Shown piece by piece: positions 28,881 to 42,090 of a stretch of 64,000 nucleotides of DNA. The notes under the pieces are model-generated. The model was not told the origin of the DNA. It worked only from the letters and a program-made list of their open reading frames with translations, and made no database searches. Position numbers and translations under genes: made by a program. This stretch comes from Girardia tigrina. Taxonomy: Eukaryota. The stretch's first letter is position 1; each line of letters opens with the position of its first letter. The stretch lies in assembly GCA_001938485.1 (NCBI GenBank), contig MQRK01216071.1:7671-71670 (forward strand). Reading direction: 5' to 3'.

Positions 28881-30256
28881 GTCCATATGAAAACGTGGTT
28901 TTTAAAACTTTTTTATTTATTATTATTAACAATATATATTTGCTGATGATTATATAAGAAGCATCGAATTAAGTACAATAATTATCATTTAAAAAGAGTT
29001 TTATATTATATTATATTATATCATATTATATTATCTAGAATATAATATTTTGACTTGTACAGTTTTTAATGTCACATTAGAAGGATAAAGCTTCATTGAA
29101 TAAAAGAAATGTGAAAGATAGAAAGGAAACTTGGATTTCAAAGTTCCGTTTGTGTCAGTGTTTTACTGAATTAATTGTTTTTCGGTTCCGTGTAGCGTTT
29201 TCCGAAAGTAATGGTGATGTTCTGGTTTATTTCCGACTCTTAACTTTGCGACTGAAAGCAATTTAAAAATTTATTGACAATTTTTGACAACAAACTATTT
29301 TAATAATCATATTCTTTTTATTGGTCTGAAAATGAGCTTCATTGTATTTAATTGTGTTGCTCAAACTGATCTAAATTTTAAAAAATAATTGCATTTTTTA
29401 ATTAATATTTTATAATTTTATTAATATAAAAAATGAATATTTACATTTATATTATATTGTTTTGGAATAAATAGAAATTCGATCGTTTAAATTTATCTTA
29501 TTCTTTGATACAAAGTATATTGGAAAGCTTCATTACTAATTTTAAGAGAGAAACCCAGTCAAACCTAAAAATCAAATTTATCCAAAGATAACTAAATAAA
29601 ATGTATAAATTACACTGTGTAACAATTTTTTTCACGCAAAAAAATTTCTATGTTACTTACACAATTTGAGTATACTGATTACGAATATGATATTAGTTTT
29701 TGCACACCATCTAATTATTTGCCGCTATTTAATATTTTCTTTATTTTCTATTTTTCTGTTTTAGATTAATACGTAATAGACTTCCCTTTTGTTTAAACGT
29801 ATCAATAACTCATTTACATTATTAAGTATTTTCAATTACCTACCATCACGAGCAAGCGAGCTTGTAAAATCTCCCACGACTCCTTTTGCTATATGTGCGG
29901 GTATTATATAGCTCCAAAACAACGAAAATATGCATTTTCAACTGGTAGTAAATTATGCACTGCTTATGAGGTTTACTTTGGTGTTCCTGTCACTGATCAA
30001 GACAAATCATGGGTGCCACATTTCAGTTGTGTTACTTGCCGGTCAAATTTAGGAAAAGGGCTAAATGGTAATCTCAGCAGCAGTTTGTCTTTTAGAATCC
30101 CTGAGATATAAGAGAGCCAACAAATCACCACGAGGATTGTTATTACTGTATGGTAGACATTTCCAAATTTAAAAATCCCAGAGATCGAAAAAGACTTATT
30201 TATCCAAACATCCCATCATCTTTAGCCCCAGAGCTCCACTCTAAAGAATTACCAGT

Positions 30257-30666
30257 GCACTTCTACTCCTTTACTGTATTAATCCTGAGGCTTTTAAGGA
30301 GGCCTGGGACGCTGACGATTCTCAACGGGCACTCCCTCTATGTAGGGATCCATGCCTTAGTTCAGTCGGTTAACCGACATCTTTGCAACAGCGTTCATCA
30401 GGCTTGATTCATCCTGGATGATTACGCTGCAATCCTACCATCGACCGCGAGGTCACTATTTCTCACAGCCTTCACACCCAGATTGTATAGCTACGCCTAG
30501 TTGATAGATTGCTAGCCCATCACTAAATACAATATATTGCCGACTGTTCCGCAATAAATCGGCTAGCTTATCAGACACTTTAGCCTTGAGACGGAATTGT
30601 ACCCAATCTAGTTTTTCAGGGACACTACGTAGAAGTATGTCTGCCTGGCCACACAGTTGATCCCTG
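30257..30666 (-). mobile_element. HDV-ribozyme-headed non-autonomous retroposon, copy B (410 nt, full length)
   Basis: Perfect 14-bp TSD AAAGAATTACCAGT (30243-30256 / 30667-30680); removing the insert restores the Chapaev reading (HSKELPV|P); homologous to 41445-41978. Confidence 0.9.
30572..30666 (-). ncRNA. HDV-like (double pseudoknot) self-cleaving ribozyme
   Basis: P1 CAGGGAT/GTCCCTG, P2 CAGACAT/GTGTCTG, P3 ACT/AGT, L3 TCTACGT, P4, J4/2 GG-CTAAA with the catalytic C. The P1.1 GG reads AA in this copy. Confidence 0.8.
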
Positions 30667-32395
30667 AAAGAATTACCAGTACCTTAACCAACACCTCTAA
30701 AAGCCATCTCTGACGATGATTTTTCTCATAAAGAAGATAGTGACGCTGACGTGGATTTTGTTGAAAAAAGTCTTTTTGTGAAAAAAGTCTATGAAAAAAT
30801 ATTCCTGCTTTCTTTGTCTCTTGTACAGTCGGACTACAGGTTCAACACTATGCTACAAAAGATTGGCCCCTTAGAGATGCATTTCTTCCTGGAAAGTAAA
30901 ATGTCATATACCCTCCTTTAGTCGAAAATGAAAAGATCTTGCTGCCGCCATTACATATAAAGCTTGGACTTCCGAAACAATTTGTAAAAGCTTTAAATCC
31001 CAGCGGACGGGCTTTCAAATATATTAGCAAAATGTTTCCCAAGTTATCTGAAGCTAAAGTCCAAACTGGTATATTCAAATTAGACTTATGTTGGCGTCAG
31101 AGGACTTGGAAAAGACGATAACTCCTAAAGAAAGGAATGTCTGGAGATTAGAAAAGTTGTGGAAGAATTCTTGGGAAATAAGAAGAGTGACGAGTACCAG
31201 CTAGTGATCAGTGATTTTCTCAAACACTTCGAAAAACTGGGCTGCAGAATGTCAGTGAAACTTCATTATTTGCATTCGCATCTACATTGGTTTCAGGAAA
31301 ACCTTGGTGACTTAAGCTAGGAACAGTGGGACGCTTCCACCAGGATATGCAAACAATTGGAGAAAAGGTACCAAGGAGAGTTGGATACAGCAATGATGGG
31401 AGATTACCTTTCGTTTTTGATTAAAAGCAATAGCACACAACATAAAAGACAGTCTCGTTCAAACCTTTACTTTTGATTGTTCACACATGACTTTAAAATC
31501 CACTGTTATGCAATTATTGTCAGTTTGAGCTTCTTTGTTATAAATTTTTTGAACTATAACTTCTTGTGGAACATTTTCTGGTCATTACAACAAATCTGAA
31601 ACGAAAAAAAAATAAAAAATGAGGGTTTTTTAACTAAATTCCGTTTTTTTAATTCCTAGGTTAATTCAGAGACGGAAAAGGAAAACCGATAACAAATTCA
31701 AAACCAGCATGTTGAAAAGTATCAAAAAATTCTTAAAACCGTTTGCGGGAGAAACTTTCTAAAAATTTTGTTACACAGTGTCTTATAAATAATTGAATAA
31801 GTAATGCGGTCTAGAAGTTTCAAATTTTCAAATGATAACACTTTAATATTTAATATTCACAGTTTTATAATTTTTGTTAATAATTTTCATAATATAATTT
31901 TATAGTAAGAGAAGCATTATTTTTGAGATCACTGAGATGTTTGAGTGATAATTATTAGTCATGTTTTTGTGGAAGGAAGCATTAAAGCTACTCACTGTTT
32001 TTGTATGCTTGGCAATCAGTTTCTGCCAATCATTTGAGAGTGCTGGTTGACTAAAATTAAATATCGAGTGATGGATTTAAATGAAAGTAAAGCTATTGAT
32101 CATCATAGATTTGATCAAAAATGTGAATGTAAATGTTCTGTCAAATGTGAGTTCTCTTAACAATGATATCTTAAAATGTCTGAATGAACTTTCTTTCAAC
32201 TTTTCAATTCAATGATATTGCTGTAGCCATAGAGGAATAAAATCACTAAAAGTCCTTAAAGTCGAAACATTTCATTCAAAACTGAACATCTGCAAATACT
32301 AAATTCATCTTTGCATTATTCATTGACAAACATTTTAATGTCTTTAGAGTAACTGAAATTCGTACTCCAAATATGAATTTGTTATAGTAAATATA

Positions 32396-41276: not shown

Positions 41277-41444
41277 ATTCCATTTCAAAGTTTAAAAATG
41301 TTTTTTCATCGATTTTTGGGTAATTAAAAAAAAGACAGCTCAGCTTAAATTGGGAATTAAAAAAATTGAATGTCAAGTTAAAATTTATAAAAAAATGTTT
41401 GGTGATTAAAATATTAAGGTGTTCAGAAGTGTACCTGCTGATTT

Positions 41445-41978
41445 CCTGTGCGAGCCGGGCAGACATACTTCCACGTAGTATCCCTGGGAAACTAGATCGG
41501 GTACGATTCCGTCTCTAGGCTAAATGTCTGAAAGCTAGCCGTTATTTGAGCCGACAGAATAACGTAGCAACAGTGGGATTGCAATCAGTTTCCAATCAGC
41601 AATGCAGACATACTTCCACGTAGTATCCCTGGGAAACTAGATCGGGTACGATTCCGTCTCTAGGCTAAATGTCTGAAAGCTAGCCGTTATTTGAGCCGAC
41701 AGAATAACGTAGCAACAGTTGGATTGCAATCAGCTTCGTGAGACTCCCGCTTTCGTTCTAAATGTCATGACTGTAGTGGAGTAGTGACCCTACAGTCGAG
41801 TGGTCGATTGCATCGCAATGATCCGAGGTTTCTAATCTTGGTGAGGGGTGTTGTGAAGCCGGCTCGCCGGTGGAACTAAGGCATGGATCCCAACATTGGT
41901 GAGTGCCCGTTGAAGCCATAAGCGTCTAAGCGCTCCTAGAAAGCATAAGGCTTAATACCTTTATAAGATGAGAGGTTC
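41445..41978 (+). mobile_element. HDV-ribozyme-headed non-autonomous retroposon, copy A (slightly 5'-truncated, with an internal 130-bp duplication)
   Basis: Perfect 12-bp TSD ACCTGCTGATTT (41433-41444 / 41979-41990); homologous to the reverse complement of 30257-30666. Confidence 0.9.
41460..41530 (+). ncRNA. HDV-like ribozyme core lacking the P1 5' strand; duplicated at 41605-41675
   Basis: P2 CAGACAT 41460-66 / ATGTCTG 41524-30; P3 ACT/AGT; L3 TCCACGT; P1 3' strand ATCCCTG then GG; P4 CTAGA..TCTAG; J4/2 CTAA 41520-23. Confidence 0.8.
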
Positions 41979-42090
41979 ACCTGCTGATTTGTTTGTTTTG
42001 AAATATAAATTGTCAAAACAATTGCAAAAATAATGAGTTCATGTGATTATTTATCATATTCAATTTATTAATGGAAAACAACTATTTTAT

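Follow-up and report, generated by a model that had tools for sequence, protein, structure and literature searches.

A Girardia tigrina Retroposon Probably Assembled from Both Ends of an RTE-Type LINE, with a Predicted Clasp as Likely Reverse Transcriptase Recognition Site and a Predicted K-Turn Insert in Place of the Gene

The window analyzed here, a 64,000-nucleotide stretch of Girardia tigrina DNA, contains at 41445-41978 a copy of a ~400-nt noncoding retroposon with an HDV-like ribozyme head, and the ~300 nt that follow the ribozyme (41676-41978) are the body of that retroposon. The initial annotation had taken these ~300 nt for one RNA of unknown function. They comprise three parts, not one: a LINE 5′-UTR module, an insert of ~175 nt and a LINE 3′ tail, the first ~75 nt and the last ~50 nt coming from RTE-type LINEs of the same genome and the ~175-nt middle being untraced. 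The sequence displays a precise 5′ start, target duplications, a head architecture and tail as in the LINE families L1-L3, the absence of a reading frame, and pair-preserving change. We consider it probable that the retroposon was made from two RTE-LINE ends, that its fold is the site recognized by the reverse transcriptase (RT) by way of a predicted clasp, and that the insert, with its predicted k-turn, replaces the gene. The features of the two copies in the window, A and B, are as follows.

41433-41444 (+), left target-site duplication of copy A, 12 bp, with identical bases at 41979-41990
41445-41978 (+), copy A as a whole, flanked by 12-bp direct repeats
41445-41603 (+), first unit of copy A, tandemly duplicated and 5′-truncated, without the first ~8 nt (P1 5′ strand)
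41604-41675 (+), HDV-like ribozyme core, second unit of copy A, without a cognate P1 5′ strand; P2 41606-11/41669-74, P3 41612-14/41622-24, P1.1 41616-17/41632-33, P4 41637-40/41660-63
41665 (+), predicted catalytic C
41678-41751 (+), RTE-type 5′-UTR module; closing helix 41678-85/41742-51, hairpin 41717-41735
41758-41765 (+), clasp helix Pd, 5′ strand (decayed here)
41769-41797 (+), insert hairpin H1, 10 bp, with a conserved 8-nt loop
41799-41804 (+), 5′ strand of the inner long-range helix Pe, partner 41915-41920
41810-41851 (+), k-turn arm; canonical stem 41810-16/41845-51, non-canonical stem 41823-27/41837-41; core with 3-nt bulge 41817-19, G-A at 41820-21 and 41843-44, U-U 41822/41842
41858-41871 (+), insert hairpin H3
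41880-41907 (+), insert hairpin H4, with an internal G-A loop
41915-41930 (+), 3′ strands: Pe 41915-20; clasp 41922-24, a bulged base, 41926-30
41931-41978 (+), 3′ tail common to RTE-type LINEs, predicted three-way junction, no poly(A)
41979-41990 (+), right target-site duplication of copy A
30257-30666 (−), full-length copy B, a member of family B; ribozyme at 30666-30573 (P1 complete, 7 bp), clasp at 30481-74/30312-04, k-turn arm at 30430-30388
30667-30680 and 30243-30256, 14-bp target duplications of copy B

The coordinates and most of the helices first drawn for both copies hold. Copy A contains an internal tandem duplication of 134 nt (41459-41592 and 41604-41737, 99% identical), consistent with a template jump, with no complete ribozyme remaining; two of its five outer closing-helix (clasp) pairs are lost, as is the 5′ strand of ribozyme P1. 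Copy B carries a private G-to-C change at 30420, by which a G of the k-turn is lost. Both copies are decayed: identity to their own consensus is 93% for A and 94% for B, with folding z-scores of −1.1 and −2.0, respectively. The invariant H1 loop (41780-41787) could pair with the terminal bases 41975-41980, over 4 bp in families A and E and over only 3 bp in B and C. Elsewhere in the window, within the segment 55948-61419, ~4.3 kb are enclosed by long inverted repeats, 414 nt of them 100% identical, along with further arms and tandem units of 24 nt; the arrangement resembles that of a DNA transposon bounded by terminal inverted repeats.

An exact pattern for the k-turn arm gave 827 matches in the genome, a lower bound on the copy number of the retroposon, against 0 for the control. 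Searches of the same genome returned ~2,000-2,600 first-look candidates per family query, 40 of which were scored per query, and retrieved families A, B, C, E and D. The 213 profile hits in the fetched loci yielded 155 full-length and, from these, 119 nonredundant copies, which were grouped by tree into 16 subfamilies; two single-copy groups were excluded, and the counts below refer to the remaining 14 consensuses, 9 of which were built on 3-4 copies each. Target-site duplications of 8-16 bp flank 101 of the 119 copies, and G is enriched at 12 and 14 bases upstream. Most intact copies start at the first base of the 7-bp P1 of the ribozyme and end in CAC without poly(A), and a crude script places the start of 56 of the 101 duplication-bearing copies at most 2 nt from the first P1 base. 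Family D is a shorter relative (~310-365 nt) with head type and tail as in A-E and a different middle; several of its copies (L227, L230, L234-L236, L239, L240, L242-L244) show a structured extension of ~50 nt in one arm of the tail junction. Four consensuses have stops in all frames and gave no match in a tblastn search with 122 proteins. No B-box pattern occurs on either strand of four consensuses and Rfam returned no small-RNA head, so that the features of a Pol III SINE are absent. Across the window nothing reached the Rfam gathering threshold, and nothing was found at E ≤ 5 around copy A; an Rfam scan of five loci gave a single weak HDV hit (E 2.1, family D), and an exact motif scan of metagenome contigs gave 0 matches.

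Consensus A1 is 94% identical to C1 over the ribozyme and 77% over the insert, while A1 and E1 share 77% over the ribozyme and 93% over the insert; such swapping of modules between subfamilies suggests frequent template switching. Different SINE and LINE families also stand in tandem at one site with an identical target duplication between the units (loci L049/L052, L037, L050, L109, L116, L183, L277 and L290), an arrangement in which a downstream ribozyme could make the 3′ end of the upstream RNA. At an insertion hot spot (pattern samples L157-L185 and L265-L284), 19 of 51 tails are followed by an identical 11-bp target inside another repeat, the frame of which we take, going by its motif, to resemble the GIY-YIG endonuclease of a Penelope-like element; Pfam gave no confirmation of the GIY-YIG reading.

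By way of a 5′-truncated neighbor, part of a tandem array, a ~4-kb LINE that shares the tail was reached, and by a motif scan the related LINE families L1, L1b/c, L2 and L3. These partner LINEs are ~3.6-4.0 kb long and have a single ORF with endonuclease, RT and C-terminal C2H2 fingers (Pfam, three segments); an intact relative, P0003, is 96% identical. An APE endonuclease and an RT, with no RNase H in the parts scanned (Pfam, and the precomputed domains of the intact P0003 and P0004), are the domain set of an RTE element, and the partner is closer to loci that we presume from their sequence to be BovB-type (E 2e-77) than to L1 ORF2p (2e-24) or R2 (7e-17), these values coming from different programs. 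C-terminal C2H2 fingers are atypical of RTE and occur in Vingi too. A first reading of the partner as Ingi/Vingi was dropped, the tail-sharing LINEs being RTE-like, an assignment made by domain content and similarity scores. The heads of L1-L3 have the HDV-like architecture and a short UTR with the same GC(T/A)GCAA-type loop hairpin that the retroposon carries (41717-41735 in copy A), the profile of the retroposon matches these heads, and its last ~50 nt match LINE 3′ ends (E 6e-5 to 2e-3). Therefore, 41678-41751 and 41931-41978 are LINE-derived. With a 5′ part from the 5′ end/UTR of a LINE and a 3′ part from a LINE 3′ end, the retroposon is very probably an RTE-derived bipartite element, although one that departs from the scheme of only two LINE parts by its ~175-nt insert without LINE homologue. 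The proposal that the region is a 5′ UTR relic is thereby borne out for the first ~75 nt, the rest being the insert and the ~50-nt LINE tail.

Some further features of these LINEs were recorded. No conserved in-frame ATG precedes the endonuclease motif of L1-L3 and the frame passes through the 5′ strand of the clasp; their translation may start at a non-AUG codon. The clasp extension has a competitor in a local hairpin that lies directly downstream and may act as a translation/packaging switch. Two distant C2H2-bearing relatives, L317 and L319, are directly followed by what we take to be 28S rRNA sequence, which suggests an rDNA-targeting lineage. A LINE protein search of viral contigs gave 0 matches.

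The insert, which lies between the 5′-UTR module and the tail, is absent from every LINE examined. Aligned to LINE 3′ ends, the insert scores no better than chance (12 comparisons, z −0.8 to 2.0), a covariance model run over 22 loci matched no LINE body and found only a neighboring SINE copy, and not one of the 20 SINE-type tails and 30 k-turn-arm loci leads into LINE coding sequence (some loci end at contig edges), even though truncated LINE 3′ ends are abundant. These results make it unlikely that an extinct or unsampled RTE family supplied the insert from its 3′ (or 5′) region, with the element an internally deleted LINE and the fold a LINE UTR structure, a reading that draws on the commonness of bipartite RTE derivatives (available text of PMC5786205 and PMC7245038), on a loose, collinear alignment by eye of the last ~230 nt of L1-L3 with the insert, and on the 681 endonuclease-motif matches, of which part was inspected (30 loci and 30 fetched stretches). 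Decayed coding sequence, which the initial annotation had named as a finding that would overturn it, was examined as well, and descent of the insert from C-terminal coding sequence at the end of the LINE ORF, to which that alignment had pointed, was rejected on chance scores, no protein match and no covariance-model match in the LINEs.

The predicted helix Pd, missed in the initial annotation, links the base that follows the 5′-UTR module with the one that precedes the tail. One two-sided change occurs in it within families A-E and another within family D, whose clasp sequence differs, and the next-best hits of a model of the A-E insert are the family D clasp (E 0.2-0.8). At the same positions the LINEs of the same genome have an 8-bp complement plus extension, 3.3-3.7 kb apart in near-full-length copies, with the 5′ site ranking 1st-7th of 143-262 in six of seven copies and 36th of 267 in one; no two-sided clasp change was found among L1-L3. 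Three foreign, mutually unrelated RTE lineages with both ends were obtained from public contigs (L329/L334, L326 and L331), and in each of the three the best partner for the 13-14 nt that follow the module lies immediately in front of the tail (first among ~220 sites). Pd is found in the same register, with different sequence, over the ~3-3.7 kb ORF of the own LINEs and of three foreign lineages. The cognate set of 5′-3′ duplexes ranks first of 24 pairings for four LINE lineages and first of 720 with SINEs A1 and D added, at duplex energies of −7.5 to −16.5 versus a non-cognate mean of −3.5 kcal/mol, in windows that were set only after the pairing had been seen. A position-blind test, in which the observed duplex was compared with 200 random region pairs, was weaker, with 0, 3, 46 and 18 pairs that equalled it for the foreign loci and 11, 5, 6, 35 and 6 for the own copies. 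In a fifth RTE family, from the own genome, the clasp is no more than suggestive (ranks 8 of 221 and 48 of 236); the distant full-length C2H2-bearing relatives L315, L317, L319 and L322 contain no recognizable motif by which to place clasp windows, and RTE motif scans of viral and prokaryote contigs gave 119 loci, 0 of them with an RTE ORF, and hence no further held-out clasp data. In a two-ORF LINE represented by three separate insertions (L325, L344/L345 and L351), module, Pd as a local hairpin, and tail are contiguous after the ORF, as expected if the parts are one unit that is split by the ORF in ordinary RTEs. The second ORF of this LINE is RTE-like, and its RTE 5′-type module lies at its 3′ end. 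We judge it likely, on the strength of these predicted pairings, that the clasp is functional, and since it joins both LINE ends it would give a testable reason why RTE-derived SINEs keep both. The balance tips slightly in favor of a wider rule, according to which RNAs of the RTE clade would fold both ends into a split recognition domain with the ORF looped out, much as in a group II intron; SINEs would then have to keep both ends, and the loop of the clasp would be a cargo slot that two SINE lineages of this genome filled independently with L7Ae-recruiting k-turn domains.

In all 14 consensuses the k-turn arm consists of a stem of 7 bp, a bulge of 3 nt with U as its last base, G-A and A-G pairs, a U-U pair and a covarying 5-bp stem, which is the standard k-turn arrangement of a 3-nt bulge and tandem G-A/A-G between canonical and non-canonical helices. 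The U-U pair together with U at the last bulge position defines the snoRNA/U4 type of k-turn. A single occurrence proves little because shuffles also yield the pattern, which in its strict form appears in 113 (A) and 127 (B) of 2000 insert shuffles (5.6-6.4%). Family D has a k-turn of opposite orientation, reached in 14 of 2000 shuffles and independent of that of A-E, and no k-turn pattern lies within 400 nt of either end in four LINE copies. Such a layout is bound by L7Ae-family proteins (PMC5579392, available text). By analogy, the chances that the k-turn binds a host protein appear about even; one copy without the k-turn arm (G, at L037) counts against a role of this kind, as do the LINEs and family D, which transpose without the A-E insert. 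A k-turn of the snoRNA/U4 type, and head/insert swaps among subfamilies that amount to template switching, could also point to capture of the insert by template jump from a structured host RNA (a snoRNA, a U3/U4-like or another k-turn RNA), kept for RNA stability and with the clasp incidental. Box C (RUGAUGA) and box D (CUGA) are incomplete in the consensuses, and the insert has no Rfam match at thresholds of E ≤ 3-5, so that it does not present itself as a box C/D snoRNA. A snoRNA-headed RTE SINE is known from platypus (PMC7245038, available text), but the differing insert of family D with its reversed k-turn, and the clasp in LINEs that have no insert, leave host-RNA capture an improbable origin.

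In the head, the helices of an HDV-like nested double pseudoknot (P1, P1.1, P2, P3 and P4, with a C in J4/2) are all present in the 14 consensuses, two-sided changes occur in P1.1, P2 and P3, and at the junctions inspected the element's 5′ end coincides with the predicted cleavage site; the architecture is that of an HDV-like ribozyme, and self-cleavage is predicted. RTE ribozymes are described in PMC6765202, where HDV-like heads are proposed to help cap-independent translation (available text). This proposed aid to translation could be taken to favor the insert as a stand-alone element, be it a second catalytic, an IRES-like or an exonuclease-blocking one, as the initial annotation had also suggested; so could the four-way junction, whose unpaired linkers and loop are conserved. 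We regard this as very improbable: there is no ORF to translate, Rfam matched no other self-cleaving ribozyme or IRES family and so lends a second ribozyme no support, no break point was seen to recur, internally or at the 3′ end, in the copies inspected, and in R2 systems the ribozyme fold already protects the 5′ end (PMC13708176, available text).

The insert is closed by Pd, which leads to a three-way junction with H1 and Pe; beyond it, the k-turn arm, H3 and H4 meet in a four-way junction. Over the 50 named pairs, 31 of 39 changes between the 14 consensuses keep pairing versus 68 of 206 private mutations, counted in four large subfamilies (Fisher p 8e-8), and two-sided changes make up 14 of the 39 versus 5 of the 206; private mutations hit paired sites at 4.1% and unpaired sites at 4.9%, and mostly break pairs. 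As the 50-pair structure had been derived from those same 14 consensuses, held-out predictions were made, with an alignment based on sequence alone. Prediction from A/E/F finds 7 kept two-sided changes among 22 changed pairs in B1 (p 9e-5), and prediction from B/C finds 7 among 19 in A1 (p 7e-5); the eight group-trained tests span p 3e-5 to 0.013 at a null rate of 5-6%. Single-sequence held-out folds are weaker (p 0.002-0.09 for two-sided changes, 0.04-0.66 for all kept pairs). Across 25 real copies, two-sided change was seen at 12 of 39 named pairs, a count that 2 of 500 shuffles reach; slid controls give 1-6. Run unguided on these decayed copies, RNAalifold returned H1, H4 and the non-canonical stem but missed the long-range helices. 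Some half of the unpaired insert positions (39 of 74) are invariant in any case, which lessens the weight of the constant k-turn bases. The fold is almost certainly under selection, as had been surmised from the two copies and as pair-preserving subfamily changes, held-out tests and slid controls together support. Chance or neutral carry-over from recent common ancestry is extremely improbable, for although single decayed copies only modestly beat shuffles (z −1.1 to −2.3) and related sequences can outdo shuffle controls, private mutations and subfamily changes behave in opposite ways toward the pairs, and held-out tests and slid controls agree.

The helices proposed from the two copies fared differently. 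Hairpin 41769-41797 holds at family level, with its loop AGT(A/C)GTGA in 14 of 14 subfamily consensuses; hairpin 41858-41871, the helix GGCAT/GTGCC, and the exchange of GCATC/GGTGT for GCAGCGT/ACGCTGT, which is the canonical stem of the k-turn, are upheld at family level; and the folded strand was rightly assigned to the ribozyme strand (consensus energy −54.8 sense versus −28.0 antisense). GCAATC/GATTGC, reported for both copies, stays a candidate helix: it is fully complementary in 11 of 14 consensuses and mismatched in the other 3, none of its pairs changes on both sides, and part of its sequence is taken up by two helices with better support. The pair AAGCC/GGCTT (A) and AATC/GATT (B) turned out not to be compensatory, since 13 of 14 consensuses have AAGCCTCAGGCTT as the tail hairpin; AATC..GATT, which none of the 14 shows, therefore stems from private mutations of copy B. 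Of the two motifs described as invariant, each is limited to 7 of the 14 consensuses; among the 119 copies they are present in 29 and 51.

In the mechanism that we propose, the ribozyme would cut the retroposon RNA out of a read-through transcript; the ribozyme of R2 SIDEs has been shown to free the RNA (PMC3414825, available text). Module, clasp and tail would fold into one domain bound by the LINE protein, the ORF of the LINE itself being looped out of the same clasp. The k-turn may bind an L7Ae-family host protein, most likely 15.5K/Snu13, and the bound protein would stabilize the uncapped, tail-less RNA or bring it to the site of LINE protein synthesis, a role of the kind proposed for SRP9/14 in Alu (PMC7245038, available text). 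Target-primed reverse transcription from the tail would then insert the new copy. Of the functions originally offered for the stretch, an RT/RNP recruitment module is the best reading, with functional steps that we infer. RTE and Vingi elements are being engineered as gene writers, with templates that carry both UTRs around the cargo (PMC13708176, available text); if the clasp is true, it would define the minimal gene-writer template and the permissible cargo position.

Ribozyme-headed and bipartite nonautonomous LINEs are already known. By title and abstract, nothing was found on 5′-3′ pairing in RTEs or on k-turns in SINEs; subscription papers, patents and supplements may hold a Bov-A hairpin or pairing, and the main text of the 2018 survey has 0 occurrences of “base pair” or “stem”. 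The 3′-end hairpin of plant RTEs is local (PMC6007223, available text). The closest comparison is with bipartite RTE derivatives and RTE-mobilized SINEs (Bov-A/Bov-tA, RTESINE1/2, WALLSI3 and SINE1-1_EBu; available text of PMC5786205 and PMC7245038). Like these, the present retroposon has no ORF, a 5′-UTR module and an RTE-LINE 3′ end, target duplications, and a partner LINE in the genome. Unlike them, it carries between the two parts a covarying insert of ~175 nt that was not traced to a LINE, and pairing of the two parts goes unmentioned in the available text of PMC5786205 and PMC7245038. It also differs from them in having an HDV-like ribozyme head instead of a tRNA, 5S or 7SL promoter, and neither a microsatellite nor a poly(A) tail.

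Drosophila R2 SIDEs likewise combine a 5′ HDV-like ribozyme with a structured LINE 3′ end, with compensatory changes in both (PMC3414825, available text). The present elements, in contrast, are dispersed and not rDNA-specific, have a partner with an APE endonuclease, and add module, clasp and insert. With trypanosomatid NARTc, RIME and SIDER they share small size, a ribozyme head, a nonautonomous nature and tandem insertion, and their first P1 pair is C-G (families A-E), comparable to the C1-G first pair of the L1Tc ribozyme; they differ in an RTE-like partner with no RNase H in the scanned parts and in having no poly(A). With the k-turns of box C/D snoRNAs and U4 the insert has in common the 3-nt bulge, tandem G-A/A-G and flanking helices (PMC5579392, available text); unlike box C/D snoRNAs, it has no full C/D boxes and no Rfam match. 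To the SRP9/14-binding domain of Alu and SINE1-1_EBu the likeness is functional only, each being a LINE-foreign fold under selection and a proposed recruiter of a host protein (PMC7245038, available text); here there is no 7SL sequence, and the motif is a predicted k-turn in a multibranch domain. If a retroposon carries a k-turn under selection, nonautonomous elements would have, next to the SRP domain of Alu, a second way of using a host RNP protein.
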